Origin: Yuukianura sp. NJ FZ-2021
Lineage: Eukaryota
Reading direction: 5' to 3'
NCBI GenBank assembly: GCA_046563655.1
Contig: CM102284.1
Coordinates: 1,674,001-1,738,000 of the forward strand
DNA length: 64,000 nt
Made by a program: the position numbers and the translations under genes. This document shows positions 11,613 to 45,967 of this stretch, in pieces (the stretch's first letter is position 1; each line of letters starts with the position of its first letter). The notes below the pieces were generated by a model. It was not told the origin of the DNA. It saw only the letters and a program-made list of their open reading frames with translations, and made no database searches.

Positions 11613-12457
11613 ACTAAACCAACCGCTTTTGAACAAGACAGCAACTGGTCGTTAAGCCTCGTTTACAATCGAGTAAATGCCAGTTTTGAATCCGTGTTTT
11701 ATGTCATAAAACAGCCTTGGTACAGGTCCATTACCCATCGCAACATCAAAACAACAGAGGCCAATGCTTGGGAACATTTAACCTGGAATAACCAGTTTTT
11801 AACAAAAGACACCAGTGAACGATAAAACTCCACCTTGTGTTTAAACAAAAGAGTTCAAAATACAAAAACACAATTACTGTACCAGACCTTTTTACAACTT
11901 TTCTCACGGGAAGTAATAAAAATTGTTTAAACTTTTTCGAAAAATTCCCGCGTTTAAAAACCTTAGCGTTCGGATTGGCGCATTTGCGTTTAAGAAATTC
12001 CAGTCAAGATTTTATGCCTTCCACGCGCCGGAGTTATAATTTTTCATAATTTTGATTTATTACTCTATTATGACTTAAAGTAGGTCAACTAATAAAACCA
12101 GAATTTATTATGCATAATAACTCCAATTATTCTAATTGAAAATTTTACATCCATGCGATTCTTGTGATAATCCAGAAAAATTTCACTGAGATTTTTTCCC
12201 TAGAAGCGTTATCTTGGAATCAAGGAATAAGTTTGGAATAAGTTTGAAAAACCAAGCGTTTGTGATCAACCGAAAACCAAAACAACCGAAATTGAAATTT
12301 TATTTACAAGAACCAAGTTATGATCGAATATGTGAAAAATTTGCTTAAACTTTCTAATAGAATTGAATACAAGGAGAAGAAAATGAAATGTATAGAATAA
12401 AATATAAACTTCTACTAACAGTTACTCATGCACACCGCGGGATCGTGGGTCCGTATA

Positions 12458-12699
12458 CAATAGACTTCCTATAACTTATGAATTGGGCAAAATACAAAAG
12501 AAATGGCAATTGCACAAACGGGGGTTTAAAAATTGCCTTACTTTTAGGTCCTATTGTCATTGCAAAATCCACCCAATTTGCAAAAGGGTAGATTTTGCAA
12601 TGGCAATAGGACCTCAGAGTAAGGAAATTTCCTAAACCCCGTTTCTGCAATTGCCATTTGTTTTGTATTTTGCGAATTCATAAGGTAGAAAGTCTACTG
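12458..12699. mobile_element. Palindromic (foldback) MITE with TA flanks
   Basis: Almost the whole element is an imperfect inverted repeat: CAATAGACTTCCTA...GCAATTGC...GGTCCTATTGTCATTGCAAAATC pairs with GATTTTGCAATGGCAATAGGACC...TAGAAAGTCTACTG. TA on both sides. Confidence 0.8.
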
Positions 12700-13025
12700 T
12701 AAATCACTAAAGGACTATCAGCATACAGCTCTGCCTAAACTATTGCGGCTGCAAGTATTACTGCAACACCATCCAGGATTGCTGCATCCAGCACCAGGTG
12801 GTCTACATGGTGGAGGCTAAAATAATACAGAATAAGTGTTACAATTTTTGAAACTGCGACAACACTACAACCTCTGTTTTTGCAACTCGTTGATTGGTTA
12901 GTTGCCTTGTATTAGCGTGAACTGTTGGTTAGTTCCGTTAGGAGTCCTAACTTTCGACTCCACTTTACAAACAACAAGTTGCACAAACGTCACTTTTAGT
13001 GTACAAGAGAAAATTTCAACGTTGA

Positions 13026-17188: not shown

Positions 17189-20086
17189 ATGGACAAAAAA
17201 ACTGCTTTCGAAGATGATTTGGCCAAAGTCGAAAATCAGTTGAAGCTCAAACAGGGACAAACCGTGGTTTCCAAATTACGAAAACAGAAATTGCATCTTT
17301 TACTAAAACTGAAAAAATATGAAGCGGTTGTTGATACTGGTGTTATGTTCCTGGGAGCAGAAGGACGCTTGGATCTCTATGTTTTCAAACACATTGTTGC
17401 AGCATACTGTCATGAAAAAAAGGTTGGTCACTTACCATAAAATCCGTAACTCCGCAAAAACCTAACATATTTTTGTGCAACAAAATTTTTAGTTCCAGGA
17501 TGGTTTGGATTTGATTGAAAAGTGGAGCAAAAATCAGAAAGAAGAAGCCTGGAAACTGCAAGAAATTCGTCAAGTCGTTCACAAGTGTTTGACTGGTGCT
17601 GGAAATGCAGTTGAATCGGTTGATCAATTGCTTGGAGTCCAGGAATTTAGCAGCGATGATGATGGCATTGACCCCGGCCTATGGAGGTTTACATTTCTAA
17701 ACAAAGTTTTTTAAACAAAACTGAGTTTTCTAAATCCGAATTTTCATTTTAGGTATCGTCCTCCCCCTGCTCAAACTGCAACGTATTTCCTCTGCCCGCG
17801 AATTTCAGACTCCACTCCATGCCTGTTTGGCGACAGTTGCTTAGCGGCTCACAGCAAAGAAGAACTGGAAGAGTGGAAAGCGAGAGCCAAAGGAGTAAGT
17901 CCGAGGTAAGTAAAAATATTTTTGAAAATTTTTAAGCCAAGGTTGGCTTAAAATTGGTAATTTTTTTTAAATATCCTTGACTCACATTTTGACTAAAAAT
18001 TTCTAAATTTTTAATTCTTTTTAAATCCTGTGGTACAGAACTGCTTTTCTGGAGTTCTTGTTGTGTTTAATAATTAATTATAAACCAACTTATTTTGATG
18101 TTATAGGTCAGAATCATACTTAAAAGCCGTTGGAATGTCAGGTCAAGGACAACGTGAAGGTTGTGGACCACGGTTGTCAAATGGCACTTGTGGTCCATGG
18201 TTACCCGGACCACCACCAAATACTCCATACTTGAAACAACTTATACTGGACTACTCGGATTCAGCAAAAAGCAAAGATTTTTGCACCAGTGTCGACGGTG
18301 TTAAATTGATGTAAGCCAATACTTTGCAATGCGGTGAATTTTTTGCACTTTTTCTCTCCACAAGTTTGCACTTTTCAAAATTTTGAACTATTTTGAAACT
18401 GACTAGATGGTCCGGTCCGCTTCAAGTTCAAGCAAATACATGCGAACATGTTTGGATTGTTTTGATTCGTTCACAACGAAAAGACACTTTGCGCACGATC
18501 ACTCTGCTTCACGATTTTGATCGAATCAATTTCCGTATATCCGAGGCCTATTTTTGTGATGACGGAAGTTTTTCACAACCAATCAATCTCATTGAATTTA
18601 ATACTTGCAATCACAAAAATGCTGTAAGTGGGTCACACGACCTTGACCATTGACCTTGGAACTTGACATGCAATTTTTGATCTTACAGGGAAAACTTCAG
18701 GTGCTAAGTACTTTCATTCCACAAAAGTTCCTCAATCGGACGTGCTACTACTACAGAGTCGGTTTCACTTTTCGTTCCGTCGGTACCGGAAAATTTTCGC
18801 AAATGGTTATACTGGACTTTAAAGAAAAACCGAAACTTGTTCAAGAGTTGAGTGTGTAAGATAACGGATACAAAAATTTAACACTTTCGCACAAAAAAAT
18901 TGACAAAAAAGTGATGACGGCGTAAACTTTTGTTTGTTTTTCTAAAAGGCTGGTCAATATTGAAACTGCTCAACCACCGGTTCCTGCACAGGCGCAATCT
19001 CAAACAACAACTACTGCTACTCCTACTCAAGTAACTACCGTCGAACCTGCTAAATCCTGCCCAATTTCTAATTTAGCGCAACAAAGTAAAGTGAAAGTTG
19101 TTGGAGAAGGTAGGCCATTGACCTATACAACATCGCAACCGTTACAACAATCGTTAACAACGATGCAACCGCAATTCGTAACGTCGCAACTACCGCTACG
19201 TTTTCAGCAACCGCTGGCTTCACAACAGCTACCGACGCAACAACCAGCACAAATTCAGCAACCGCTGACGTCACAATCGTTGCAAATTCACCAGCCGATG
19301 ACGTCACAGGCGTTACAACTTCAGCAACCGCTGACGTCACTATCGTCACAAAGTCAGCAACCTATGACGTCACTAGCGCCACAAATTCAGCAACCGTTTA
19401 CCTCGCAACTGTTACATCACCTACCATTGACGTCACAGCCTTTACAACTTCAGCAGCCGATGATCTCGCAACCGTTACAACTTCAGCAACCGTTGACCTC
19501 GCAATCGTTACAACTTCAGCAACTATTAACCTCGCAACATAATCATTATCCGCAGCATTCCTCAGCATCTCAGCATCTTTCACATATCCAGCAATCGCTA
19601 CCGTCGCAACAAGCGATGCATCTTCACCAAATACGTCTTCAGCAACCGTTGTCATTACAACCACAACCTAGTTTGGCAACAACTACTACGACATGTCTGC
19701 ATTGCCCGGTAGTTAACCACGTTAGTGAGTCTGTACCATTTCGCTACTACTGCGCTGCTCCTAGTCTTAGTCACGTTCAGCGTATCGTTCGGCCTCCGGT
19801 TGGCCAAGTTCCTGCCCATTCGCAACTTCTACCAGCTCACTTTCTATTAAACGGCAACGGATGTCACGCCTGTTGCCACCGACATCACGAACTTGAAAGA
19901 AGTGACACACGGTTGCCACTCAGAGACGCTCCACGCATGACGCAAGCCCGTCACCCGCCTGGATTCTCTGGCCCAACACATGTAACACCACAAGAGGAAC
20001 AAAACCACTCAGCAGAGGCATCAAATTTGCTTGATTTGGAACAACATCTTATTGGAAACTTCATGCACGAAATGCTCAATGATTAA
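17189..20086 (+). CDS. HELZ (helicase with zinc finger)-like N-terminal protein with CCCH finger and Gln/Pro-rich tail, lacking a helicase domain
   Basis: Seven exons (~17189-17422, 17493-17686, 17753-17905, 18107-18310, 18408-18623, 18689-18855, 18949-20086). Motifs WRYRPPP...FLCPRISDSTPCLFGDSCLAAHSKEELEEW, VDGVKL, ITLLHDFDRINFRI and YRVGFTFRSVGTGKFSQMVILDFKEKPKLVQ are colinear with the HELZ N-terminus. Confidence 0.8.
19120..19540 (+). repeat. 36-bp coding minisatellite (12-aa unit QQPLTSQSLQLQ)
   Basis: About 11 degenerate copies of CAGCAACCG(C/T)TGACGTCACAATCGTTACAACTT in the last exon of the HELZ-like gene. Confidence 0.85.
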
Positions 20087-23105: not shown

Positions 23106-24711
23106 GGCAACGTAAAGTGTCAAATTCAATGGTTACTATAGTTATGGCGGTTACACTTTATCGTTACGACGACAGTTTATGTTGAATTACCTTGTCCAAG
23201 ATCAAGTTCAGACTGATCCTGAGCCAAGACCGTGACTTGGCATTTGTAGCTTGCTGAGCAGTGACGCTCCTGGTCAGTGCCAAATAGGTTCATGACGTCA
23301 TCTCCCATTAGTTACTCCCTTTAATGTTTAAGTTTCCATTTAGCGGGTATCAATTTGCGAAATTAATACTTTCCAAAACTCGCAAAAAAATTGCCAAAAT
23401 TTGCACGGAACCTCCTGCTTCTCATGCAATGATCTCTCCGCCCCCAAATTCCGACCCGAAATCGCGTGTAAACGAACTCTCTTAAACGTTTACCAATGTT
23501 TAAATTTTTTGCACAATTGCAAAAATTGCTTGCCAAAAAATTGCAATACAAGACAACGTTATGGAAACGAGCCGGCGGTATTAACTTGTTCCCGGATTTT
23601 CTACTACTTGGCACGTCTTTGCAAAAATGATCTCTCCCTCTTACCCCGCCCCCATTTTGTGCCAATAGGCTCGCAAACGTTGATCTTGAAAAAGATGAAC
23701 GGACAATAATTAAAACATCTGAGGGCGTCAAATTAACAAATTCCAAATTCATCAGCAGAACTATTCGGATCATGACACTTCTGTTGCATTCAAAAGCAGG
23801 TTTTTCTTTTCAGGAATCAGAAATTCAAAGAATACAAAAAACGAAGAGTAAATTTTCCAACGTTGTTCGGGAAAGCCATGAATTCTTTGAAACCTATTTC
23901 ACTTTAGTTTTTAGTTTAAAACAAGAAAAAAAATGAAATTAAATTTCGAATTCAGTTACTTTTCGTAGTGAAAATTAAGAGCACTTGGAGCTTCCATGTT
24001 TCACATTTAAAAATCGCCACTTTTCAAAAAAATATTTCAAAAAACTGAGCAACATTTACAATATGGAGTTTGTTGACGTTTAAACTTCTCATTTTTGAAA
24101 TCACTGAAATGCGTGTTGATGTTGAATTAAGAAAAATAACAATAAGAGGTTGCCCTTTGCCGGATGAAGAGTTTTTTTTTACACCTCCGTTTCCAATCAA
24201 AAACAGGATATTAAAGACGTAATTTTCTTGCAACTTCCAAAAAATGCGGAAGGAAACTGAAGTTATGTATTAGAAAGCAATTCCAGAATCAAAATTTTTT
24301 GTTGCTGTTTTTATGATAGAATCATTTTTTTTGTTATACTTTTATGTTGTGTTTATAATGAAACCTCAGCGCAGTTTGGTCGATTTCCTATGTACTTTAA
24401 AACAGCTTTCATACTAAACCCCAGTTCTCCATGCATTTATGTTATTACGTTAGTTGAATTTTGATGCACCATGTAAAATGCAATTACAACTTTCAACATC
24501 AATAAAAACAAGTTCAATCCACTTTCCATTGAGAAAGGTCAAGTTACAATTGAATGATGCCACACAACACAGTAACCAAAGGCGGGATTAGATACTATAG
24601 TTTGATTTTTTATTTCTGACCCTTTGTTTGCTGCAAAATAATTTCGATCTTTGTATTTATCGTTAGTTCTAAAAACTTTCGTCACTTCCGTAATAGAAAA
24701 CGACGGCAAAA

Positions 24712-27700
24712 CAGGGTTCGTAAAAAGACGTCAATTTCGGGGAAGTGACACAAATAACATAAATTAACTAAAATACGTAAGTTACACAACCTTGAAATAG
24801 TACTGTTGGACGCCGCATCATCACAAAATCAATAATAAATTAGCTACGTATAGAGGTTGGAATATAGTACACTGTTTTAAGGAATATGAAACAAAACAAC
24901 AAAAGGCGACAGAGAGGCGACAACTGACCTGTTTAAAAATTTACCTGTTCTCTAACTTTTTGACGTGACCAAATTTTTAAAAATTCACTTGTACACTTAC
25001 TTTTTGAGGATTTGGAATTTTGAAAAATTCAGCTGAAATTCAACTTTTGGATATATTTGCCTTGCCGAGGATTCACGCGTAACTCTACCCTCTTGAAATG
25101 TTGGTCTCGTGAAAAATTTACCTGTTCTCTAACTTTTTGACGTGACCAAATTTTTAAAAATTCACTTGTACACTTACTTTTTGAGGATTTGGAATTTTGA
25201 AAAATTCAGCTGAAATTCAACTTTTGGATATATTTGCCTTGCCGAGGATTCACGCGTAACTCTACCGTCTTGAAATGTTGGTCTCGTGAAAAATTGACCT
25301 GTTCTCTAACTTTTTGACGTGACCAAATTTTTAAAAATTCACTTGTACACTTACTTTTTGAGGATTTGGAATTTTGAAAAATTCAGCTGAAATTCAACTT
25401 TTGGATATATTTGCCTTGCCGAGGATTCACGCGTAACTCTACCCTCTTGAAATGTTGGTCTCGTGAAAAATTGACCTGTTCTCTAACTTTTTGACGTGAC
25501 CAAATTTTTAAAAATTCACTTGTACACTTACTTTTTGAGGATTTGGAATTTTGAAAAATTCAGCTGAAATTCAACTTTTGGATATATTTGCCTTGCCGAG
25601 GATTCACGCGTAACTCTACCCTCTTGAAATGTTGGTCTCGTGAAAAATTTACCTGTTCTCTAACTTTTTGACGTGACCAAATTTTTAAAAATTCACTTGT
25701 ACACTTACTTTTTGAGGATTTGGAATTTTGAAAAATTCAGCTGAAATTCAACTTTTGGATATATTTGCCTTGCCGAGGATTCACGCGTAACTCTACCCTC
25801 TTGAAATGTTGGTCTCGTGAAAAATTGACCTGTTCTCTAACTTTTTGACGTGACCAAATTTTTAAAAATTCACTTGTACACTTACTTTTTGAGGATTTGG
25901 AATTTTGAAAAATTCAGCTGAAATTCAACTTTTGGATATATTTGCCTTGCCGAGGATTCACGCGTAACTCTACCCTCTTGAAATGTTGGTCTCGTGAAAA
26001 ATTGACCTGTTCTCTAACTTTTTGACGTGACCAAATTTTTAAAAATTCACTTGTACACTTACTTTTTGAGGATTTGGAATTTTGAAAAATTCAGCTGAAA
26101 TTCAACTTTTGGATATATTTGCCTTGCCGAGGATTCACGCGTAACTCTACCCTCTTGAAATGTTGGTCTCGTGAAAAATTTACCTGTTCTCTAACTTTTT
26201 GACGTGACCAAATTTTTAAAAATTCACTTGTACACTTACTTTTTGAGGATTTGGAATTTTGAAAAATTCAGCTGAAATTCAACTTTTGGATATATTTGCC
26301 TTGCCGAGGATTCACGCGTAACTCTACCCTCTTGAAATGTTGGTCTCGTGAAAAATTGACCTGTTCTCTAACTTTTTGACGTGACCAAATTTTTAAAAAT
26401 TCACTTGTACACTTACTTTTTGAGGATTTGGAATTTTGAAAAATTCAGCTGAAATTCAACTTTTGGATATATTTGCCTTGCCGAGGATTCACGCGTAACT
26501 CTACCCTCTTGAAATGTTGGTCTCGTGAAAAATTGACCTGTTCTCTAACTTTTTGACGTGACCAAATTTTTAAAAATTCACTTGTACACTTACTTTTTGA
26601 GGATTTGGAATTTTGAAAAATTCAGCTGAAATTCAACTTTTGGATATATTTGCCTTGCCGAGGATTCACGCGTAACTCTACCGTCTTGAAATGTTGGTCT
26701 CGTGAAAAATTTACCTGTTCTCTAACGTTTTGACGTGACCAAATTTTTAAAAATTCACTTGTACACTTACTTTTTGAGGATTTGGAATTTTGAAAAATTC
26801 AGCTGAAATTCAACTTTTGGATATATTTGCCTTGCCGAGGATTCACGCGTAACTCTACCGTCTTGAAATGTTGGTCTCGTGAAAAATTGACCTGTTCTCT
26901 AACTTTTTGACGTGACCAAATTTTTAAAAATTCACTTGTACACTTACTTTTTGAGGATTTGGAATTTTGAAAAATTCAGCTGAAATTCAACTTTTGGATA
27001 TATTTGCCTTGCCGAGGATTCACGCGTAACTCTACCCTCTTGAAATGTTGGTCTCGTGAAAAATTGACCTGTTCTCTAACTTTTTGACGTGACCAAATTT
27101 TTAAAAATTCACTTGTACACTTACTTTTTGAGGATTTGGAATTTTGAAAAATTCAGCTGAAATTCAACTTTTGGATATATTTGCCTTGCCGAGGATTCAC
27201 GCGTAACTCTACCCTCTTGAAATGTTGGTCTCGTGAAAAATTGACCTGTTCTCTAACTTTTTGACGTGACCAAATTTTTAAAAATTCACTTGTACACTTA
27301 CTTTTTGAGGATTTGGAATTTTGAAAAATTCAGCTGAAATTCAACTTTTGGATATATTTGCCTTGCCGAGGATTCACGCGTAACTCTACCGTCTTGAAAT
27401 GTTGGTCTCGTGAAAAATTGACCTGTTCTCTAACTTTTTGACGTGACCAAATTTTTAAAAATTCACTTGTACACTTACTTTTTGAGGATTTGGAATTTTG
27501 AAAAATTCAGCTGAAATTCAACTTTTGGATATATTTGCCTTGCCGAGGATTCACGCGTAACTCTACCCTCTTGAAATGTTGGTCTCGTGAAAAATTTACC
27601 TGTTCTCTAACTTTTTGACGTGACCAAATTTTTAAAAATTCACTTGTACACTTACTTTTTGAGGATTTGGAATTTTGAAAAATTCAGCTGAAATTCAACT

Positions 27701-27859
27701 TTTGGATTATTTGTTTTCAGTGGAAGGCGCCATCACATGTGTGTACGGAAGGAATAGTTGAAAATGACATAAATTACATCCCCTTTGAATATGACGTATA
27801 TGACTTATGTAATTTACGTAACTTACATTAGGTACATAAATTACAATTTACGAACCCTG
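24712..27859. mobile_element. hAT-like non-autonomous transposon enclosing a satellite array
   Basis: 13-bp TIRs CAGGGTTCGTAAA (24712) and TTTACGAACCCTG (ending 27859). 8-bp flanking duplication CGGCAAAA / CGGCAGAA with one mismatch. Subterminal ACATAAATTA and TACGTAA motifs occur near both ends. Confidence 0.8.
24935..27707. repeat. 177-bp tandem satellite, ~15.7 nearly identical copies
   Basis: AAAAATT(T/G)ACCTGTTCTCTAAC recurs at 24935, 25112, 25289 ... 27590. I saw only three variable positions. Confidence 0.98.
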
Positions 27860-28278
27860 CGGCAGAATATTTAGCGTGTTAGTTTAACGTAATGAAATTG
27901 GTAGACTAGAAGCACCACAATTTATTTATTTTTTATCCCTAAATGAAATTTTTTGGCAAGAGTAACACAATTTATGAGAATAATTCGAAAAAAAAACTGC
28001 GTAACTTAAGCCGACTGGTTTTGGAAACTAAACTGCTAAGTATTCCCTATGTCAGTTTTAGTCCCTATTATTGTCTGACACTCGAAGATTCTATGAAGAA
28101 GACTGTAGAATGGCTGGTTTGGAATTTGTGACACGCGTTCCAACATTAACTAATTGATGATTCAAGGAACTAATCATTGCGTCACCTTGACCTGCCCCCT
28201 GGAGGTTACTTGCACCATGGCAACTTGCTGCTACGTTAAGTACTACTGTTTTGAGATTCAAAAGTCGTTTTTATCCCA

Positions 28279-30405
28279 TTACAAGCCCTTGTTGTAGTAG
28301 ACGACCGATGGGGCATTTGGAGATTGTCGAATTCGCTCCTGCAAGGACACAAAAACATCTTTGAATGAATTTTTGAGAAAATTTTCATTTTTTTTGGAAA
28401 ACTACTTATGTTTTTGGAAATTAGTTCGGACGTACCTGCAATTCTGGTTCCAACTTGGACACTGCGATTGAAGACTTCTGTGGAAAGAGGGCACAGCACA
28501 TGGGCGTGGCAAATGTTAAACAGAATCCACAGAGTAGAACTTGAAGTGGAGCCCCCAACATTGGGTAACGCGCAAGCGTCCCGCGACGTTCAAGTCGATC
28601 CATCAAAATTGGCGGGAAAACTAAAACAAAAATATTTTTTTACCAAAAGTGAAGCCAAAAATATGAAAGTATCACCAAAGTTAAAGCAACTAAACAACAT
28701 AAAATAAAGGGTGTCCCGACATTAGGAAAATGATGCTAAATGCTAATTCGACCCAGTATTAATGGCAAATTAGCACACAGTTACAAAAGCACAAAAGTTA
28801 GAAGTAAATTGTGTTAAATTGCTAAAGTTAATTAAATAGTAATTAATTGTTAGTGATTAAGTGAACAGTCCTAGAGCAGCGTGAGTGATATTGGTTGTGT
28901 CATGTACTCATGCTGGGTATAGCCATGGCTATGCGAGACAGCACCACTTGAGTAATGCCCGACTGTGCTGCCACCACGGAATTTCCAAAGCGATTCCCTT
29001 CAGCGTCACTAACCAGCGTCCCATCGTTTAATTCCCTGGAAGCAGATAAGCAAACATGGAAAAATAAAAAATAGCCCCGTTAGCTACTTAAAACAAAAAA
29101 AAAATTTTGTACTCATTCCCGGTGCGGCCATCAGAATACGACTGAGGACGACTGAGGCAATGCCAATTTGAGCGGCAACTTTTGAGTCTCCCAACCTCTC
29201 GCCAGTTTCATTTACCACTGGAATTCCACCTGACAGCTCTCTAACACCCAGTTCAATAGTAGAAATTAATCAATCGATTACTCTGGATTGTTTACGTTAT
29301 GCTCACTCCATGGAGGAAATTCCAACTGACATTAAATCGTAACCCTGATTTCAAAAAAATACTTTCTGGAAAATACTAAACCTGACTCAGGTTGTCTATT
29401 TGATAATGTGGAAACATTAAACTGAAAACCCATGTTAACATTTTCGCAAAAGGACTCACTTCATTCGCATCATTGGGATATTGACACAGTTGGCAGCGGC
29501 TACTGCAGCAAATGGAACCCATCTTCCAATCAACGGAGGAGCTTTCTGAAAAGTGTAAACAGAAATATTGAGTTCATGAATGTGGAACAATCAAACCTAA
29601 CCAAGATTTTTAAGTTTCAAGTTAGAAAAAGTACCTTGACTAAACTGTTGAGTCCAAGGGCGGTTGCCAGAGCTCCACCAGTAGCTAGTACGTAAGAAGT
29701 TCCCAGTTGCCTAAGTTGAAAAATTAAAAAAATTCGGCAGCTTAAGAATTTTATTTGAAAACAGAATCTGAAACTTGAACTTACGCTACGCTGATAGGAG
29801 AATCTCCGCTGCGATTGGAGTAATTCACAACGGCATTGAAGGACTGGTTAAACCATTGCCAGAAAACGACCGCCTGAGTGGACCTACCGATCATACATAA
29901 AAACCGTGCCATGACAAAAGCGGAACGAGACCAAATCACGGTGCTGGACGAAATCTTACTTGTAGAACGTAAGCATGCATCCAGTAATTGACATGTTCAT
30001 AGGAACTTGAGCTGACATTCGTCCAATCAAAACCATCTTCTCTCCAGTGTCCGGATGAAAGGCAGAGTCATAGACACTTTTTGCTCTCCAGAGATCATCT
30101 TCGGACAGATCCAACTTCTCTCCCTTCCTAAAATACAAATATCAATAAAACATCAATCAAAACAAATCCGGCAATTTGAATTATTGAATTACTGTCCAGG
30201 TAGAATAACAAATCGTAGATATTCGTTATCTTAAATTGCACACTCGCCTGTATCTCGTCACAATATCTTTGGACCTGTCCAATTCAGCTGACGAACACAG
30301 CAGGTTCATTGGATTGGTAGTGACAAAAAAGTGTTTAGCCCGTCCCCAGTAAGTGCTCTGATCCCATCGTGGTTCGTCGATGTTAATTCGCTTTTCCGTT
30401 GACAT
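28279..30405 (-). CDS. Sfxn1-3: Sideroflexin (SFXN1/3-like mitochondrial carrier)
   Basis: [101 protein letters not shown] and YNKGL* are all sideroflexin signatures. Non-coding exons probably extend upstream to ~30790. Confidence 0.97.
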
Positions 30406-31480
30406 GACTGCTTAATACTGTTGTCAATCTTTCGCAATCGAAATCTAATCGTCTATTCTCTCCTCTCGTACAGCGTCTGGGTCCGAAACAATCAAACCGC
30501 TCTAGCAAATCCTGTATTTGCACAGTGAAAGGAACGGGATTATTCTGAATCTATAAGTCAAAATACAAGTTATTAAAATCATATTGACTTAATCAGCGAA
30601 TCAGCCGATTAACCATGAAATACCTTGGACAATGGACAAGCATACACACAGCAATCAATCCACGCAGCTGTTCACCTTCTGCGTTGCTTACATAACTACT
30701 ATAGCTAAAATACTGTTAATCCAATACTATTCGACCTAAATTAATCGACTACAGAAGTGTCAATTAATTAGGAATTTTAACGATTTACTCGCCAATAAAT
30801 GGCGAATATCCCTTCCTCCTCTCCGGTTGATTTTTTGTGTAGATTTGACGATTGATTTGAGAGTTCAATAATTTTTAGCTGAGTTCGCGCGTTTCATCTT
30901 TTTGGGGCGTGAATGTCGCTAAGTTCCAAACTCAATAGCGTGAAGCAATAGTTTGAAACAAAATAAGAATAATATATTTATATGTTATTACATAAATACT
31001 ATCTATAGAAAAATGTATATTAATGTAACCTTATGAAGCTTCCAGTTCAATCTTATGGGGCCAACGTGGCAACTGACACTGTCTATCAAAGAATGTCAAG
31101 CACTGTGATGCTGATACATTTCTTGTTCTTTAGAAAAGTGGACCAAGTTGAAAGCCAAGACCTTGAAAGTTCATTTGAGTCAAACTTTATCCAAAGTTAA
31201 CGTGACCTTTGACATGGTCGAATCTAATCACTCAATTCCTGCCTACTTTCATCCGTTTCTGCAGTTGAAATTCTGTTTCAAACGTTTCTGGCTTAAAAAT
31301 TGTGCAGAGATTTCATCAAATGAAAATAATTCTTGCGCTCACTCCGTTTCCCCGAAAAATTAATTTTTATTTCCAGTCTACTTTTGCATTTATTTTTTTC
31401 AATTTTAGTTTTTTTGAAACTTCAGAATCTGTGTTAAAATGAAGCCATTTTTTGAGCTGTAAGCAATTGAATAGTGGATC

Positions 31481-33883: not shown

Positions 33884-34195
33884 GAGAGCAGCTTAGCATC
33901 ATACGTTTTTTGGGAGTGACAGCGCACAAAAGAAGTAGATATCATGGTTGAGATGGTTTCCTTTAATATGGTCAACAACAATTTGGTCAAAAAGTGAAAA
34001 GGTAAAAGCAAAAACTGAGGATCACATATACAAAAATCTACCTTACCCAAACCTAAAGTGCTATTTGTAGCGGTTGGCCTTTTCACATTTTGATCACATT
34101 ATTTTGACCATGTCACCTGCGACGGTTGAGAAGGTGGAATTCCAATTCATTTTATTTTAATTCCAAAATAAGTAGAAATGAATTTGCGAAAATTT

Positions 34196-35919
34196 TCAGT
34201 TAAATTCTTTACAGAGTTGTTGAAATTCGGCATTCATTTTTTCACGAGTTGTGTCCACGAGGGAATTAATTTCTTCCAACTTCAATCCTTCAGTTGGAAC
34301 TGGATCCAGAATTGACACAGCAATTTTTCCTTTTCAAGGAAACAAAACAACACATGATTAGTAAAACGTGAACTCTTTTTAACTATAGACTCAACTTTGT
34401 TTTAAATTGTGCAGTTATAAAATTTTTAACTTCTAAAAAATCATAAAAACATCGTAAGTACCGGTTCCGAATATTTTTTGTTCATGGTCTACGAAGTTTG
34501 CTGGTGAAATCACAATTGGCACAATTGGTAGTTTGTTTTCATGGGCAATGTGAAAAGCGCCTTTTTTAAATGGAAGCAACGACGTTCCTTTGTTTCGGGT
34601 TCCTTCAGGAAAAATGAGTATTTTCACCTGCATTTATCAAGCATCCATATATCAATATACTATATTATGTATGGTATTAATACTATATTGAGTATTTATA
34701 TTACATACTATTACATATATTATATACTATTATGCATTCTACTTATATTAATTTAAATAATTTAACTTTTAAGTTAATTATAATTAAGCAGACCAAGTCC
34801 ACAACAAGTTGTTCTGCTCTTTACATTAGTATTGTCCTCTGAGAATTTTGCCAATTTGTCAGCAATTTCCTGTTGAGCTTTAGGTCCATTCGATCGGTCA
34901 ATAAAAATGACACGACAGAGCCAACCAGTAGGAAACATGTACATCAAAATTTTCTTGGCAATGAACGTTAGGCTTCTGTTTTTGCATACACCGACGACAG
35001 CCACAACAGCTGAAACCAACAGAACCCAATACCTTGAAATAAGTTTACGTAACATCCAAATTTAGTAATGTTAAAATTCGGTCGAAGTAAACGCAGGCTC
35101 CCCTCCTGTACCCACCAGTTCAAATTTTCGCACAGTTCTACCAACCCACTGTGCCCATCTGATGGGTACATTTGCACCCACCACTACTCATCCGATCTTG
35201 CGAAAAGCGCCTTCACAATTAACTGACGTCTCAAAATGACATGCGTCAGCGATTTTGGTATGACGCATAACCGGTTCACACGTTTTCAGTGCGAATTCAG
35301 ATGCTGCGTCCAAATTTCATTCGATTGCAGTCATTGGGAATCAGACTCTTTCCACCTGGCGCTAGATGGACGTATGCTTTTGGATTTTGGTGGGTATAAA
35401 TGCCATCCGATGCATACAATTAGAGCAGCTTGAAAATTTGAACGGATGGGAATACGCAGCGAGCCGAATATTACTTTAATCGAAATTTCAGTTTTAAATT
35501 GCCTGTTTTCCAACTTACCCAAAGCATCTAAGCAAGTTTGGTGATTGAAAATCATGACACACGAAAAGTCAGTTTCCAGTACATTTTTCCCGCGTACCTC
35601 CCATTCTATCCCAAGTATTTTTGACAGTGGCAAAAGATACGGATAAAACACACTAAGATAAAAAATATACAAAGTCATAAAATGTATTTTTAAAATAAAC
35701 AGAATTAGAAGATTAGAAAATGAAAAGAAAGCTTTACCCAACATTCCGTTTCTTTTTTGGCATCAACAAAATGATTGGCAAAGCAATTGCTCCGAGGACG
35801 ATAAAGTAGATTTGAAAAAACACAAATTTTGCGTAGTAGTACACAACACTCGAATTCCGTTTGAAACTAACCCAACTCAGGAAAAGAACCAATATCCAAA
35901 TCCAAGTTGACAATTCCAT
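34196..35919 (-). CDS. 1-acyl-sn-glycerol-3-phosphate acyltransferase (AGPAT/LPAAT), copy A
   Basis: Five exons carrying motifs NHQTCLD, FIDR, FPEGTRN and LLPFKKGAFH. Confidence 0.93.
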
Positions 35920-36065
35920 TTCCTTTCAAAAAGCGTCTAAATTTTCGAAATGATACAGTTGAACTGAATCCCTACTGACACAACTTCGGTAGAATTTTGC
36001 GAGCTACTTTGGGAAAAATAGAGAAAAGGGTGATTTTATGATTTTAGTAGACTTGTCAAATGAAC

Positions 36066-36247
36066 CAACTGGGAAAAGATATTGAAAAATTACCACACGC
36101 TCCTGGAAATAGTAAGATTTGTACGTCAACTGTTGAATCTGACATAAAGTTTGCTACAAGCGAACTCAACTGTTAGATGCAACAGTTGACGTAGAAGTCC
36201 TATTATTTCCAGGACCGTGTAGTAATTTTTTAATATTTTCCCAGTTG
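36066..36247. repeat. Long imperfect inverted repeat (foldback) upstream of AGPAT copy A
   Basis: CAACTGGGAAAA...CCTGGAAATAGTA...TACGTCAACTGTTG pairs with CAACAGTTGACGTA...TATTATTTCCAGG...TTTTCCCAGTTG. Confidence 0.75.
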
Positions 36248-36638
36248 TTGTACTGTGCACTTTTACACCAAGTTAAAAAAAGGGGAATCGAGTACTAGTA
36301 TTTAAGTTCATTTTAAAACTCAAATTAGCACTTTAACTCACGCATGCGAGTTTGAGTAGCTTGAAACTTGGACACTTTAGCAAATTTTAACTTTTGATTA
36401 ACTTAAATTATAATCAGTTTTTAATTTGGACGGTTTTGGAATTGTCGACTTTTGAAATTGTCGTCTTTTGGATTGTCGGCTCTGACCAGGAACCGACCAA
36501 CTTAGGACTAATTCCTTTTTCCCGAGTGACAACGGGCAAAAAGGTAATATGATTGTTGAGAAGATGCGATTCTACTTTGTTTTACTTTAATTACAAAATA
36601 ATGATAAACTTTTTTTTTGCTCGCAAGGAACAAAATTT

Positions 36639-37881
36639 TCAGTTAAACTCTTTACAGAGTTTTTGAAATTCGGTATTCATTTTTTCACGAGTCGTGTCTA
36701 CAAGGGAATTAATATCTTCCAACTTCAATCCTTCAGTTGGAATAGGATCCAGAATTGACACTGCAATTTTTCCTATTCAAAGAAAAAATACAACACAGGA
36801 TTACTAAAACGTCAAATCTTTTTAACTTTACACTCAACTTTTTTAAAAATTATGTAGATATAAAATTTTTAACTTGTAAAAAAATCATAAAATATTGTAA
36901 GTACCAGTTCCAAATATTTTTTGTTCATGGTTGACGAAGTTTGTTGGTGAAATCACAATTGGTACAATTGGTAACTTGTTTTGATGGGCAATGTGGAAAG
37001 CGCCTTTTTTAAATGGAAGCAACGACGTTCCTTTGTTACGGGTTCCTTCAGGAAAAATGACTATTTTCATCTGCATTATAAATCAATAAAAGTATATTAA
37101 TATATTATACATTGATTTAAATATTTCAACTTTGTTAATTATAATTTAAATAGACCATATCCACAACAAATTTTTGTGTTCTTTACATTGACATTGTCTT
37201 CTGCGAATTTTGCCAATTTGTCAGCAATTTCCTGTTGCGCTTTAGGTCCATTAGATCTGTCTATAAAAATGACATGACAAAGCCAACCTGCATATCCTGG
37301 AGGAAATACGTACATCAATATTTTCTTGGCAATGAACGTTAAGTTTTTGCCTTTCGATGCATTTATGACTTCCACAACAGCTGAAACCAACAGAACTCAA
37401 TACCTTGAAATAAGCTTACATTAAAAAAGTTTTTGTAAAATTTCAGATTCTGTAGTTTTAAATTTCAATTTTAATTACCTGTGTTTTCCAACTTACCCAA
37501 AGCGTCTAAGCAAGTTTGATGATTGAAAATGATGACACACGGGAAGTCAGTTTCCAGAACATTTTTACCGCGTATCTCCCATTCGATACCGAGAATCTTC
37601 GATAGTGGCAGAAGATACGGAAAAAACACTCTAAAATGAAAAAAACACAATTATCAAATGCATTTTCAGAATTTTTTGAAATAAAATACTTGAAACTTTT
37701 ACCCAACATTCCGTTTCTTTTTTGGCGTCAAGAAAATGATGGGTAAAGCAACTGCTCCGAGTACGATAAAGTAGATTTGAAAAAACACAAATTTTGCGTA
37801 GTACACAACACTCGAGTTCCGTTTGAAACTAACCCAAGTCACGAGAAGAACCAATATCCAAATCCAACTTGAAAATTCCAT
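36639..37881 (-). CDS. 1-acyl-sn-glycerol-3-phosphate acyltransferase (AGPAT/LPAAT), copy B
   Basis: Same five-exon structure and motifs as copy A; tandem duplicate. Confidence 0.93.
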
Positions 37882-39193
37882 TTTCGTTTCAAAAAATGCC
37901 TAAATTTTGGAAATGACACAAATCAACTGAATCTCATCCGATGCAACTTTGGTAGAACTTTGTGTACCACTTTTGGAAAAATAGAAAAATCCAAGAGGTT
38001 TTTATCATTTCAATATTCAATGCACCAACTGGAGAGAGATAATAAAAAACAACCACATGATTTTGGAAGTGTGTGTCTGGAAATGGTACGACGTCTAGGT
38101 CATCTGTAGAATCTAACACAAAGTTTGTGGCTTATGTACTTTCTAAACTCCAAATAGAAAAAAAAACACGGGGCGTATTTCATTTCATGTTAAAGTTTCA
38201 AAATGCAACTTCAAATTAGCACTAAATCACGAATGAGAGCTTGAGTAATTTTAAACTAGGAATTTTCAGCCAATTTTCACTGTTTGGTTGAAGATATAAA
38301 AAAAATATGGTGGTAAATATTGTGTATTTTTTGTGGAGTTGTTGCATAATACGTAGTACAGTCATCCAAACCAAGGCCAACCTTCTCTATTAACAAGTGA
38401 GCTACACTTTGATGTTATTTAGTACAATAATCTTGTAAGTTGTAACTTTATTCATAAGATTTCATCACTTATATAATCATCACATCATACTTGCTCCCCA
38501 CATGTACTTTAATTCAAATAGTAATTAAATGAACTTCCATAATTCTATAACATGACAACTAAACTCCTTCGTAAGAAATTAACACTATAACTCAAGTTTT
38601 CCTATGTTTTCAGTCTCGAAAACAACATTTCATGTTACAGCGCCGTGTTAAAATGAATTCTTAAACTCTTAACAATTTGTTTTCAATGGTAGTTTTTTCG
38701 AACATAAAGTAACATTTCAACCATTATAGTACTGGCATTCTTCGATTCTTTCTGGCTTTCGTATACTAATTTTTCATAATTTAAAGCAGAAGTTGAAATA
38801 AGTTAACAATTTTATAATTTTAACTATTATGATTGTGACTCTAAGCTCCAAGCCCTATTTTCGATTTTTTTTTAAATTAGACTATTTAAATGTCACGGTT
38901 CATGCGGTTTGACTAGTTAATTAATTAATACTGATGAGATAAATCAGATTAAAATTTTTTTTCAGTTTTCGATTAAATAGACTTTATGTTGAACTTGGAA
39001 TTCTCCGATTCAATCCCAACATAAAATTGAAGCTCAATACTAGTATGTAACAGGAAAAGCTTATAGGAGACGCCTGAGTTGCGTTTGAAATCTACAGTGA
39101 CTGATGAGTGATGACCAAAAATGTTTTTTTTTACCTACTTCTGAATAGATGCCAAAGCCTGCTTCGGTTTGCTTTAAAATTTCACTTGATTTG

Positions 39194-39877
39194 CTAGTTG
39201 AGTCTGTTGAATCGTCGACCTCTCATTTGCATTTGATGCATCAGCTGAGTTCCACTGCTGACTCCAAGCAGTGTTTTGCAAACGGAGCACCGATGCTGAA
39301 TATCCGTGCACATTCTGGCAGCAGTTGAATTTGCTTTGCTCATCACAAAGAAGCCAACGAGAAAAACGATGAGAAAGACAGGCATGACAGCCAGTGGAAT
39401 AAATGTTTCTCCGATGAGGGTTAGCAGGATGAAGAAAACAATAAAGACAACTGCTGCCATTCCATAACAGGCATACACTTTCTGGGATACTCCTTGTCGG
39501 ATGTTCCGGTTCTCCACTTCTGTTAACTGAGTAACTGCCGTGTTCTTGCATGTGGGACAGACAACAATGACTGGATTCCGTCCATTTTGACTGATGGCGG
39601 CATTAACTGCCTGAGCAGCTAGTATAGATTCGCCTACACCGCCTGCTTGATTTGAGAATGGTATAGGTTGCATTTCCATTCCAAAGTTGTATGGCGGAAG
39701 AGCCATTTGATTCAATGGCATTTGGAACTCTCCAAAGTTGGATGATCGTAAGAAACCGGACTCCGAATGACTCGAAGCACTAGGACCGGTATAAGGTGGT
39801 GGTGGTTGATTGGTGATGCTATCAGTGAGTTCATGTTGACCTCTTGATGGACCCGCAATTTCGTTTTCGGTATCCAT
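39194..39877 (-). CDS. LITAF-domain protein, paralogue 1
   Basis: N-terminal PPPPY and LPPY motifs; VVCPTC...hydrophobic segment...DIQHRCSVCKTLLG. Probable 5'UTR exons at ~40262-40364 and from ~40541. Confidence 0.88.
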   Translation of the reverse strand: MDTENEIAGPSRGQHELTDSITNQPPPPYTGPSASSHSESGFLRSSNFGEFQMPLNQMALPPYNFGMEMQPIPFSNQAGGVGESILAAQAVNAAISQNGRNPVIVVCPTCKNTAVTQLTEVENRNIRQGVSQKVYACYGMAAVVFIVFFILLTLIGETFIPLAVMPVFLIVFLVGFFVMSKANSTAARMCTDIQHRCSVCKTLLGVSSGTQLMHQMQMRGRRFNRLN

Positions 39878-39942
39878 TCTACAAAAAAATATGTGAACAT
39901 TTACATCGAAGCTATCAATGAAGTGAAAAACACTGGTTTAAA

Positions 39943-40237
39943 TGCAGTATCGCGGCGCAGCATGGATTTGGCCGCCATTTTCTTTCTAGTCTAATTTGAG
40001 TAATGCTGAATCCGAATCTGAAAGAATTTCTTTTCCAGAAATGTACGGAAAGTATTTTTTTGAATTTTTAAAATTGACGTTTCCCCATAAGAAAGCATTA
40101 GGTTTTCGCTTCTATTTTCCTACGTTAGGTTAAAAAAGTCAGTTCCGGAGAAAAATTCTTTCAGATTCGGATTTCAGCATACTCAAATAAGTCTAGAAAA
40201 AAAAGGCTGCCAAATCCATGCTGCTGCCGATACTGCA
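39943..40237. mobile_element. Foldback MITE in the intron upstream of LITAF paralogue 1 CDS
   Basis: ~95-bp imperfect TIRs: TGCAGTATCG...GCAGCATGGATTTGGC...AATCCGAATCTGAAAGAATTT and AAATTCTTTCAGATTCGGATT...GCCAAATCCATGCTGC...CGATACTGCA. Confidence 0.8.
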
Positions 40238-41593
40238 ATTTTTCCAAAACACTTTCACTGACCTTAAGGTCCTTCCGTTTGGATGAAATTGGGACAATAA
40301 ACTCAATTGCTAATCATCCTCTGGATCTGGCTCTTGCTGAAATTTCTAACCATGGAGATGGAACTGAAAATATAAAAATACTTGAAGCAAAAGCAATCGG
40401 GGATGATAAATATGGATTTAAATAGAATGACTAAATAATTTCTGTTAAAATCATCATGAATTACTAATTAGTATTGGTAAATCTTTCCAATTAAACGCTT
40501 TTGTAAAAAGTACTACTGAAAATAATTAGTTTCAACTTACCAATCAATCTTTTGTATACCAGCCTTGGCACCGTCGCACCGTTGTGGTTCTGTCCGAATA
40601 ATCCCCGGAATTCGGAATGGACAAGTAACCTACAGAGGCAGAATCGGAGATCAAGGTCATTCAACTTATGAACAGAACAAACGTGAGACAACACTCTCTA
40701 TGAATGCTGAATGTTTTTGGTATAGGCAGATCTTAATACTTCTTACATACACAAACACCATTCGGTTGAAATGAATCGAAATCGGCTCCATTGTACCCAG
40801 CATGACTGGTCCATTTCTTGTGAATGTTGCGGAAATTGAAACAACGAAACATGATCGACCTTAAACTTGAGTACATCTCCAGACTAACTTTTATTCAAGC
40901 AGTATTTACTTAATTACTATGAATTGCAAATCATTCATTTAAATTTAATATTCACTAATAAGCACTAATATTCACTAAAATAGCCATTAAATATTCACTA
41001 GTACTAGAAATAAACATTTCATTAAAACAAGGAGACCATTTTTCTGAGCACTTTGTTCCGTTCCTTGGAAGCTCTTTGGATGGAAGTAATTACTACAAGT
41101 ATTTTTTCAAAGTAAAAGATAATTATTGTTACAATTATTGTCATATTTGGTTAGTGTAAAATGGTGAGGGAATCCGCACAATACCCTCCCCTTGCGCCCC
41201 CGCCGCCATGCCAGGCGACGTAATTATTATTACATTTGTTTGGCAAAACACTTTACGCCGACTGAGTTTTGTTTTAAAATAAGGTTATTTTACCACTAAA
41301 ATTATCGCAAGCACAGAAGTTATCATACAGGTACAATTGTTAATTAGTGTTTGAATTCGTTGTTAAATTTCATAGGGTTGTTAATGGCGCAACGTCTTGT
41401 TGTCCTGCGAGGTTATTACATGAAAGGATTATTATGGAAATGAAGGAGTCACAATAATGCTAAACTTTCAATAGATTAATAGGTAAGCGCTCTAACTAGG
41501 AATAAAATTTTATGGAAGACAAGCGAAATCTCACTAACTTTCCTAAAATCTGCTTTACCTTTCATACAACATTGTGACCTTTCACATTTTTAT

Positions 41594-42253
41594 TTAAAAC
41601 AAGCTGTGTTGGAATCCGTAGTTGAAACGGAAACGTGGCATCTCCTGAACTCCATTGCTGACTCCAAGGAGTGTCCGGCAGACAGAGCAGTGGTGCTGAA
41701 TATCCTTGCACATCGCCGCTTGCGCCGTTGCTGTTTTGCGCATGCCATAGTACCCCCAATACAGAACCAAAAGAAAGATGGGCAATATGAACAAAGGAGC
41801 GAAACTTTCACTGATGATGCTATCTCCAATGAAGAATACAAAGACGATAACAGCAAACCAACGAATCCTGTTCTCGGCATTTGACCATGTCTGAGTCATT
41901 GTAGTATTTTCAATTTCCGTAATCTGCGAGACTGTGGTGTTCATGCATTTTGGGCAGACGACAGTAACAGGATTCCTTCCGTTTTGGCTAATAACTGCTG
42001 CGGCAGCTTGGGCTGCAAGAATCGGATTGACACCTCCGTGACCTTGTTCTGATCCTGGTGGTGGATTGAACCCAACAGGATTTGGGTTGTATGGAGCCTG
42101 ATCCTGTTGCATCTGAAACTGGGGATTGTAAGGTTGCGGCTGCGCTGGTGGAGCTTCTGGGTTGTAATTGAATTGCCCTACACCAGGATACTGCGGAGGC
42201 TGCTGCTGATTTTCGTTGTCACCGACGGAATTTGAAGTTTTCTCGGGAATCAT
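41594..42253 (-). CDS. LITAF-domain protein, paralogue 2
   Basis: Starts MIPEK just after a TTAG acceptor; PPQY motif; CPKC...DIQHHCSVCRTLLG. Confidence 0.88.
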   Translation of the reverse strand: MIPEKTSNSVGDNENQQQPPQYPGVGQFNYNPEAPPAQPQPYNPQFQMQQDQAPYNPNPVGFNPPPGSEQGHGGVNPILAAQAAAAVISQNGRNPVTVVCPKCMNTTVSQITEIENTTMTQTWSNAENRIRWFAVIVFVFFIGDSIISESFAPLFILPIFLLVLYWGYYGMRKTATAQAAMCKDIQHHCSVCRTLLGVSNGVQEMPRFRFNYGFQHSLF

Positions 42254-42305
42254 GCTTTCTAAATGAAAAATACTATGTAAGTACACCGGAAACCGGATTT
42301 GAACC

Positions 42306-42455
42306 AATATTTGGCTGAAGTTGCAGTTTCATTCTGCAGTTCGATGTGGTGGGAGATGGATGTGTAGGTGGTGGAAAGTGGTGAAAGTTAGTTACATTAC
42401 ATCCACCACCCACCACATCTAATTGCAGAACGAAACTGCAATTTAGCCCAATATT
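42306..42455. mobile_element. Small palindromic MITE in the 5' intron of LITAF paralogue 2
   Basis: AATATTTGGCTGAAGTTGCAGTTTCATTCTGCAGTTCGATGTGGTGG pairs with CCACCACATCTAATTGCAGAACGAAACTGCAATTTAGCCCAATATT. It is absent from the equivalent intron of paralogue 3. Confidence 0.7.
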
Positions 42456-43789
42456 TTCACGAAACAAAAATTTACTGAATTTGAGTCCTAAATCTACGAA
42501 AGCCTTAAAAACCTAGGGAACTTAGGGTAAACTTACTGAGCAGTAGGAACATTCCTAGTGTGCATGAGTGGTGTCAAGGACGCGGTGTGTCCAATTGGGT
42601 CAATCCTGTGTATATTCTAGTAGGATCAATACTACCAATTAAATTTCAAACCACCCTACTAAAACGAAAATGGAATGCAAATGGTCGAATAGGGTAAATA
42701 CTCGGTAAAGAACACAAGAACTGTTCTGAAGATGAGATGGAATTTGCGAAAAACGGGACACATCTTATGCTGCTGCTGGTGGCGCTGGTCATTTCCATGT
42801 AACTACAGGGATTATTGATCTAGTAACCCTGATATACTCCGACCTTGATCTTTTCGGATGCTGCAATATATCGGCTTGCCGATACCACTCCATCTTTTTA
42901 ACTTGCGCACTCTGTAGGAGTTGATTTTTGGAGAAAGTGCAAAATCAAAAAATCTCCCTGTTTTCAAAATTTCATAAAAAGTTAAGGTCGGTTCAGACAC
43001 TACTTACAAGTGAATCGGAATCGGCTCCATCGTAGCCACCATGACTCGTCCATTTCGTCGGAATGTTGTGGAAATTGAAACAACGAAACATACTCGATCT
43101 TAAACTTGAGTACATCTCCACCTCGAGAGTAACTTTTATTAAAGCATGATTTACCTAATTACTATGAATTTCAAATTCCGTAACGCGTGCTAATTAAATG
43201 TGAACAGTATTTAGAAATAAAATAAACATTTCATTAAAAAGAAGCCACAAATTCTTAGCACTTTGTTCTTAAAGCTCTTTGGAAGTAAAGTACTTTTACA
43301 CATTAAACACCATCATTAACATTACATATTTGTTTGGTAAAGCACTTTAGGTTGATTATTTTTTTGAAAATAAAGTTACAAGTAAAGATCACAATCACAG
43401 CTCCATAAGGTATGATTGTCAAATATTTGAAACAAGTATGGTTAGATTTCATAGGGCCGTTACAGGCCATGCAACAACGCCTTGTTGCACTCCAAGTTTA
43501 CCTGGAAAGATATTATGTAAACGAAAATTCACAATAATGCTATCTAAGCCTAACTTTGATTTAATAATAACAGTACTTTAACTGCTTTCAAATCTACTAG
43601 AATTTAGATAATGGTAGTAAGGCAAGATGCATTCTGCTAAGCAGCCTAAGTTACGAGAATAAAATTGGTTCATAACCTTAGTTAGTGCAAATTCCGTTCT
43701 AGTTTCACCGATTCATAGAGGATAAGCGAAATCTCATTAACTTTGCTTAAATCTCATTTACCTTTCCTTTAGCGTTATGATCTTTGATT

Positions 43790-44452
43790 TTAAGAGCTGT
43801 GATAGTATCGACGGTTGCGACTTTGCATCTGCTGCATCATCTGAGCTCCACTGCTGACTCCAAGGAGTGCCTTACAGACAGAGCAGTGGTGCTGGATATC
43901 CTTGCACATCGCTGCTTGCATCGAAACCACTTTCCGCATGATACAGAAGCCCATTAGCAGAAACAGAAGAATGACGGGCATCACGAACAACGGAACGAAA
44001 CTTCCACTGATGAAGCTCACTGCAGTGAACAAGGCGATGAAGAGAACAGCAGTTCCACCAAAGAACATGTGTGCGATATTCGACGTTCCTTGTCTCACGG
44101 CAGTATTTTCAACTTCCGTAATTTGCGTGACAGTGGTGTTCTTGCATGTTGGGCACACAACAGTAACAGGGTTCCTTCCGTTTTGGCTAATGGCTGCTGT
44201 GACAGCTTGGGCTGCAAGAATGGATTCACTGACCCCTCCTTGACCTTGGGCTGCAGGATTGAATCCAACAGGATTTGGGTTGTATGGAGCCGCATTCTGT
44301 TGCATCTGAAACTGTGGATTGTAAGGCATCGGTTGCGGCTGTGCTGGTGGAGCCTGTGGATTGTAATTGAATTGCCCAGCACCAGGATATGGCGGAGGCG
44401 GATGCTGATTACCGTCGTCACTGGCGGTCATCGGAGTTTTCTCGGGATCCAT
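43790..44452 (-). CDS. LITAF-domain protein, paralogue 3
   Basis: MDPEK start; PPPPY motif; CPTC...DIQHHCSVCKALLG. Confidence 0.88.
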   Translation of the reverse strand: MDPEKTPMTASDDGNQHPPPPYPGAGQFNYNPQAPPAQPQPMPYNPQFQMQQNAAPYNPNPVGFNPAAQGQGGVSESILAAQAVTAAISQNGRNPVTVVCPTCKNTTVTQITEVENTAVRQGTSNIAHMFFGGTAVLFIALFTAVSFISGSFVPLFVMPVILLFLLMGFCIMRKVVSMQAAMCKDIQHHCSVCKALLGVSSGAQMMQQMQSRNRRYYHSS

Positions 44453-45427: not shown

Positions 45428-45967
45428 CTAAAATAGGCCACTGCTTGGTTGCATATCTTGAAACGTTTTGACTCCGTAGTTTACTCCAAGGAGAGTCCGA
45501 CAGACTGAGCAGTGATGCTGAATGTCGTTGGCTAGCGGTGCCAGGCCTAGGAATATTTTTCTCATGAAGAAGTAGACGATCAGACCGATGAACCAAAACA
45601 GTGGGATAGCAAATAATGGAGAAAAACTATTGGCGATAATGGCCACAATGATGAAGAACACGACGACGATAACCAATATAATTACGAAGAAACGTTCAAA
45701 GGCTCCGTACTTCGCTTGGGTCTCCACAGTATTCTGAATGACTGTGACTTCCGTCATACCGACACTCCTGCAGTTCGGACAGACAACCGAAACGGGTTGA
45801 CGCCCATTTTGAGCGATTGCACCCGTTGCCAACTGAGCCGCCAAAATCGTTTCAGTGACATTTCCATTACCTGGATCCAGTTGTGTACTGAATCCAGTGG
45901 AAGTTCCTGGATATGGCGGCGGTGGGTCTGATTCGTCGGCAGTGGTGGAAGCCTTTGCCACATCCAT
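45428..45967 (-). CDS. LITAF-domain protein, paralogue 4
   Basis: PPPPY motif; CPNC...DIQHHCSVCRTLLG. Confidence 0.88.
   Translation of the reverse strand: MDVAKASTTADESDPPPPYPGTSTGFSTQLDPGNGNVTETILAAQLATGAIAQNGRQPVSVVCPNCRSVGMTEVTVIQNTVETQAKYGAFERFFVIILVIVVVFFIIVAIIANSFSPLFAIPLFWFIGLIVYFFMRKIFLGLAPLANDIQHHCSVCRTLLGVNYGVKTFQDMQPSSGLF

Follow-up and report, generated by a model that had tools for sequence, protein, structure and literature searches.

The window analysed here is the whole 64-kb stretch of contig CM102284.1 (positions 1,674,001 to 1,738,000; GenBank assembly GCA_046563655.1) of the springtail Yuukianura sp. NJ FZ-2021, and all coordinates below are window positions. It is gene-dense, AT-rich animal DNA (GC content 0.32–0.43 in 2-kb bins across the window, 0.33 at the locus of interest). 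The locus holds a 3,148-bp element in which an array of 177-bp units lies between a 223-bp left arm and a 146-bp right arm. An initial annotation, made from the sequence, had placed a 2.8-kb array within 13-bp terminal inverted repeats and an 8-bp flanking duplication with one mismatch; this arrangement was recovered here with all coordinates correct. The features of the element are, in order:

24704 to 24711, no strand: left 8-bp flanking direct repeat, a putative target-site duplication (TSD), CGGCAAAA, 7/8 identical to the right copy
24712 to 24724, plus strand: left terminal inverted repeat (TIR), 13 bp, CAGGGTTCGTAAA, exact
24712 to 24934, plus strand: left arm, 223 bp, of unique sequence bearing subterminal motifs
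24935 to 27713, plus strand: tandem array of 15 full 177-bp monomers and a final partial monomer of ~120 bp, delimited by Tandem Repeats Finder
27714 to 27859, plus strand: right arm, 146 bp, with subterminal motifs and a local palindrome at 27797–27838
27847 to 27859, minus strand: right TIR, the exact reverse complement of the left TIR
27860 to 27867, no strand: right 8-bp flanking direct repeat, CGGCAGAA, 7/8 identical to the left copy

The two TIRs match at 13/13 positions, begin with CAGGG, and are abutted directly by the flanking repeats. Searched in both orientations, the exact TIR sequence occurred at these two places only in the window. When up to two mismatches were allowed, one site was added, at 48473; the resulting total of 3 against 1.75 expected is at chance level, since at least 3 were found in 24/100 shuffles.

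To define how often such ends arise by chance, the 600-bp flanks on each side of the array were compared with 5000 shuffled flank pairs and with 537 real-sequence pairs drawn, at the same spacing, from elsewhere in the window. On its own, an exact inverted repeat of at least 13 bp was present in ~1% of pairs (48/5000 shuffled; 6/537 real-sequence). This frequency, together with the single copy available, is what favours the reading that the array is a free-standing intergenic tandem array whose inverted and flanking repeats are coincidental. In contrast, a TIR of at least 13 bp with an adjoining 8-bp direct repeat of at least 7/8 identity was found in none of the pairs of either set (0/5000; 0/537). 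A blind scan of the whole window for TIRs of at least 8 bp starting with YARNG, the start consensus of hAT TIRs, spaced to give an element of 40–6000 bp and flanked by an 8-bp repeat of at least 7/8 identity, returned two structures, the present element and a 181-bp element at 52361–52541. Without the YARNG condition and with TIRs of at least 10 bp, three further rows were obtained, two of which (56354–56522 and 60463–60811) are internal to palindromic elements, the remaining one (5242–7102) being an 11-nt T-rich repeat. Among 40 block-shuffled windows the mean number of structures was 0.6 at TIRs of at least 10 bp, and none appeared at TIRs of at least 13 bp.

The arms carry a second, independent signal. 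Eighteen eight-mers recur within or between them in either orientation (6/18 are accounted for by the TIR itself), compared with 3.9 ± 2.4 in shuffled arms, and 0/1000 shuffles reached 18. The principal motifs are:

Left arm: ACATAAATTA at 24757; ACGTAAGTTAC at 24775
Right arm: ACATAAATTAC at 27767 and 27834 and, inverted, at 27807; GTAACTTAC at 27818

Thus ACATAAATTA(C) is present once in the left arm (24757) and three times in the right arm, twice directly (27767, 27834) and once inverted (27807), and a quasi-palindrome, GTAA[G/C]TTAC, is found in both (24777 and 27818). Within their 369 bp, the arms hold 3/4 of the window's sites for CATAAATTA (both strands), 2/2 of those for ACATAAATTAC and 2/3 of those for GTAAGTTAC. 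The arms therefore share asymmetric subterminal repeats, as hAT ends do, and by analogy these repeats would be candidate binding sites for a transposase. This enrichment of shared motifs, independent of the TIR statistics, also speaks against coincidental ends, a reading that was already disfavoured and that we now consider very improbable. We conclude that the array sits inside a structure with the insertion ends of a TIR (class II) transposon, and that these ends are far beyond chance.

Next, the array itself was examined. Tandem Repeats Finder reports a period of 177 bp, 15.7 copies, 99% matches and 0% indels (score 5474) over 2,779 bp as assembled. The near identity of the monomers, noted in the initial annotation, was borne out: among the 15 full monomers only 11/2655 positions differ from the consensus, confined to three sites (G/T at position 8, a single T>G at position 23 and C/G at position 156), the mean pairwise difference is 0.58%, and edge monomers are as clean as central ones. 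The T variant at position 8 occurs in monomers 1, 2, 5, 8, 11 and 16. Head-to-tail monomers of high identity, as expected of a satellite, are thus present; in the wider sense the repeat is a putative satellite, the monomer forming a single 2.8-kb array and being absent from the rest of the window.

The 177-bp unit is composed of four diverged ~44-bp subunits, a make-up that is newly described here. Circular autocorrelation of the monomer peaked at 0.54 at a shift of 44 and at 0.44 at a shift of 88 (maximum over 500 shuffles, 0.41); AAAAATT starts three of the four subunits, which agree with each other pairwise at 23–31 of 44–47 aligned columns, and Tandem Repeats Finder independently reports a 44-bp row with 57% matches. 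The first subunit boundary of each monomer is occupied by a 14-nt palindrome, AATTTTTAAAAATT. Where the left arm meets the array, its final 15 bp, ACAACTGACCTGTTT, mimic the beginning of a monomer (AAAATTGACCTGTTC-like), and at the right junction the similarity to the monomer fades across ~15 bp, with no sharp stop. Because of this subunit structure and these junctions, the array reads as an old, diverged 44-bp minisatellite of which a four-subunit block was recently amplified. The monomer had initially been likened to nucleosome-sized satellites (~170–180 bp). This is no more than a resemblance, and a row of four ~44-bp subunits is the more fitting description.

The longest open frame through the array has 58 codons, and neither Rfam families (0) nor tRNAs (ARAGORN, 0) were detected in the window. 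On these grounds a coding or RNA function was rejected; with neither coding sequence nor structured RNA detected in it, the array is probably selfish or neutral DNA.

We then considered the kind of transposon to which the ends belong. For Hermes and other hAT elements such as Tol2, the available parts of one source describe an 8-bp TSD, short TIRs and asymmetric subterminal repeats over ends of 150–450 bp (PMC10368747), and an 8-bp TSD serves, in the portion available of another, as the hAT criterion for MITEs (miniature inverted-repeat transposable elements) (PMC7385995). The present element has an 8-bp duplication (7/8), a short TIR with an initial CAGGG, and asymmetric subterminal repeats in arms of 146–223 bp. 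Short TIRs and a flanking duplication are present and long inverted arms are lacking, so Helitron and foldback architectures were rejected. The element, at 3,148 bp, exceeds the few hundred base pairs of a MITE; however, the arms alone are only 369 bp, and it is therefore a MITE-like cassette inflated by its array, which without the array would be ~370–550 bp and MITE-sized.

Several observations weigh against the assignment to hAT, or against a transposon reading as a whole. An 8-bp TSD is not exclusive to hAT: other TIR superfamilies make duplications of roughly 8 bp, namely P, some Mutator-like, Merlin-like and less common groups. Measured against the Hermes-type target preference nTnnnnAn, which is a preference rather than strictly defining (PMC10368747, available part), the target has A at position 7 in both copies but G instead of T at position 2, in what is one site only. 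No transposase domain was found in any of the 46/46 open reading frames (ORFs) of at least 110 amino acids in the window. When each arm, the monomer and each flank were compared with the window by BLAST, no second copy appeared, and the best matches outside the element were 14–40 nt with E values of 0.002 or worse; one copy was thus seen, whereas multiple copies with different flanks define a transposon family. A 531-bp (three-monomer) higher-order pattern in the position-8 T variant was also considered and dropped (lag-3 excess, P = 0.16). Finally, expansion after insertion draws on a single TSD mismatch (Fisher p = 0.09; see below). Searches in other collections added little: neither a 29-nt string from the monomer nor a 28-nt string from the left end had a match among prokaryote genomes, which is expected and uninformative on the host genome, and a literature search by sequence returned no match for the TIR string or for six 20–21-nt monomer strings.

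The first of these points bear most directly on an element of the same architecture that belongs to another TIR superfamily making ~8-bp duplications (P, some Mutator-like, Merlin-like or others) and not to hAT. The superfamily call draws on a 13-bp TIR and an 8-bp repeat only, the target misfits nTnnnnAn at position 2, and no transposase was found among the ORFs of the window. Set against this, a short TIR with an initial CAG (a hAT trait), an 8-bp duplication and asymmetric subterminal repeats form the classical hAT combination, the latter two as given in the available parts of PMC10368747 and PMC7385995, and we regard a different superfamily as unlikely. The element is most likely non-autonomous and hAT-like, an assignment made from its ends alone. 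The earlier proposal of a hAT-like non-autonomous transposon holding the array is accordingly retained for the transposon ends, which lie beyond chance and fit hAT-type features, while membership of hAT is putative.

Taken together, we consider it probable that a single non-autonomous TIR (class II) transposon, most likely hAT, inserted at the locus and that a minisatellite in its interior was amplified in the form of a 177-bp higher-order unit. In such a history a transposase encoded elsewhere and acting in trans would have recognised the TIRs and the subterminal repeats, and insertion would have duplicated the 8-bp target. The interior of the element would have held a ~44-bp minisatellite, four diverged subunits of which would have become the 177-bp higher-order unit; replication slippage, unequal sister-chromatid exchange or gap repair may then have multiplied this unit to 15.7 copies. 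Since the monomer copies are only 0.6% different, the amplification would be recent.

Whether the array grew at its present position is a separate question. The initial annotation had argued for expansion or homogenisation after insertion from the mismatch in the TSD. At the array's own diversity, at least one mismatch in 8 bp has a probability of 0.046, and 1 mismatch in the 21 terminal positions of TSD and TIR (8 + 13) versus 11/2655 in the array gives Fisher p = 0.09; these values are no more than suggestive of such an order of events. Another possibility is an element that inserted with a long array already aboard, its family transporting a ready-made 3.1-kb composite with no local expansion. 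In its favour, edge monomers are as clean as central ones, the case for an insertion predating the array is weak (p = 0.09), and 3.1 kb is within the natural hAT size, Hermes being about 3 kb according to the available part of PMC10368747. In described families, by contrast, copies differ in how many repeats they hold, usually few, from a single monomer to arrays in miDNA4 (PMC12628747) and five core repeats at most in DTC84 (PMC3879986), as far as the accessible text of these sources goes; the single TSD mismatch set against 0.58% monomer diversity also points, weakly, to a younger array. Insertion of the finished composite is possible but the less likely course. Because internal repeat number in published families varies and is usually small, we lean toward most of the amplification having taken place at the present locus, after insertion.

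Other transposon-like structures are present in the window. The 181-bp element returned by the blind scan (52361–52541) is a second, unrelated hAT-like MITE with a 14-bp TIR, CAGTGTTGCTGGAT, and an 8-bp flanking repeat, TACGTATT/TGCGTATT (7/8). A partial relative of it lies on the opposite strand at 46471–46593 (76% over 131 bp, one end kept), so such elements occur in the present genome. At 60337–60940 a foldback-like element, another transposon-like structure with tandem repeats, has inverted arms at 60349–60552 and 60722–60925 that are 95.6% identical and consist of about 11 tandem 15-bp subrepeats (ATAAGAGCTACTCCA) around a ~170-bp unique core; it is flanked by an exact 8-bp direct repeat, GTTAAATA, at 60337–60344 and 60933–60940. 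Five small palindromic MITE-like elements of 150–301 bp (12456–12701, 36066–36247, 39940–40240, 42306–42455 and 56343–56535) each match their own reverse complement at 71–84%, and a TA duplication is possible for the one at 56343.

A gene close to the array-bearing element is:

28421 to 30411, minus strand: sideroflexin gene, its stop codon 553 bp from the element's right flanking repeat

This distance makes the insertion intergenic or 3′-flanking. Two Allacma fusca proteins share 91% and 89% identity with the final sideroflexin exon; for Orchesella the value is 82–85% and for Folsomia candida 75%. Pfam matches in the window comprise Kazal inhibitors, five tandem LITAF-like genes, an F-box protein, an aldo-keto reductase and a C2H2 zinc-finger gene; the aldo-keto reductase exon is closest, among the named matches, to springtail, Daphnia and ostracod proteins (54–57%), which points to arthropods. 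With the sideroflexin matches, this indicates a host among springtails or their near kin, distinct from the species named; a search with one LITAF-like ORF returned no informative taxon. The five LITAF-like zinc-ribbon genes lie in tandem on the minus strand (39194–54894), are apparently single-exon, score at or just under the curated Pfam cut-off, and are partly related by recent duplication (e.g. 41509–42274 versus 43712–44475, 76%). Two segmental duplications were noted, at 34125–38127 (34.1–36.2 kb versus 36.6–38.1 kb, 79–85%) and at 48743–53486 (48.7–50.5 kb versus 51.2–53.5 kb, 72–81%), the latter carrying a pair of small secreted-looking ORFs (49076–49471 and 51574–51927). A 386-amino-acid open frame at 18926–20086, rich in Q, P, L, T and S, runs over a 33-bp/129-bp coding tandem repeat (Tandem Repeats Finder rows 19249–19538) and has no Pfam match. 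The F-box ORF (58331–59788, minus strand; Pfam F-box E = 7e-6) is uninterrupted over 485 amino acids; no relative at E ≤ 0.001 was found among the 266–849-amino-acid proteins of a 5.8-billion-protein set, and by this comparison it appears lineage-specific.

A documented class of transposons carries satellite-like arrays internally; it includes miDNA4, Xstir, pearl/DTC84, DINE, CgHINE and Tetris (PMC9659126, PMC12628747, PMC3879986; here and below, as described in the parts of these papers available to us). Closest in superfamily are gadMor-hAT-1784 as well as gadMor-hAT-8043 of Atlantic cod, which are hAT-derived and non-autonomous with 167–169-bp tandem units (PMC12368964). Like the present element they have no ORF and a body of tandem repeats, with units of 167–169 bp compared with 177 bp. 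The cod elements differ in having ~600-bp inverted arms of tandem units or a simple-repeat-like body and in accumulating in tandem at inversion breakpoints (PMC12368964), whereas here, comparing by description, the array is unidirectional and central, and the short unique arms on either side of it end in 13-bp TIRs. A Tribolium repeat family has also been described as partially similar to a hAT element, in the available part of PMC5844308.

The Tc1/mariner MITE miDNA4 of Xenopus tropicalis (Scalvenzi and Pollet 2014) likewise has an internal satellite monomer, present singly or in variable arrays, and a path from internal expansion to free satellite arrays was proposed for it (PMC9659126, PMC12628747, in part). 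Short direct repeats were invoked at the borders of its repeats; at the left junction here, 15 bp imitate the monomer start. It differs in superfamily, in its TA target and in host, and between-copy variation in repeat number is documented for it. Similarly, in the DTC84/pearl-type MITEs of bivalves, cassettes bearing short inverted repeats enclose a central array of core repeats (PMC3879986, in part), and palindromes lie within the repeats of both DTC84/pearl and the present monomer (AATTTTTAAAAATT). However, DTC84 is described with at most five core repeats, a terminal microsatellite on one side and a putative AA duplication, in contrast to 15.7 repeats, no microsatellite and an 8-bp duplication here. 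The Helitron/Helentron elements DINE (Drosophila) and CgHINE (Pacific oyster) are also non-autonomous DNA transposons with central tandem repeats, and elements of this type carry and spread satellite-like repeats in euchromatin (PMC9659126, in part); they are rolling-circle elements without TIRs or target duplications, both of which the present element has. The present element thus differs from these systems in its long (15.7-copy) unidirectional central array, short unique arms, intact ends and host group. A literature search on Collembola transposable elements, hAT and satellite gave nothing on such an element in the titles and abstract openings returned.

We also considered a larger role for the 177-bp repeat, as a satellite of the springtail lineage spread across the genome and perhaps associated with centromeres or heterochromatin, with the hAT-like cassette as its vehicle of dispersal. 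This appears doubtful. If it were true, the locus would be a freshly seeded array in gene-rich euchromatin, and one element would display the stages of 44-bp minisatellite, 177-bp higher-order unit and homogeneous array.

Springtail repeats are little studied, and the principle of arrays within transposons is already established in frogs, bivalves, flies, beetles and fish; the value of the present element therefore lies in a well-preserved instance and in an aid to annotation, not in a new mechanism. It combines intact ends with a visible record of growth from 44 bp to 177 bp. If other copies with differing monomer numbers exist, it would be a clean arthropod case of satellite-like DNA growing in, and being moved by, a DNA transposon.

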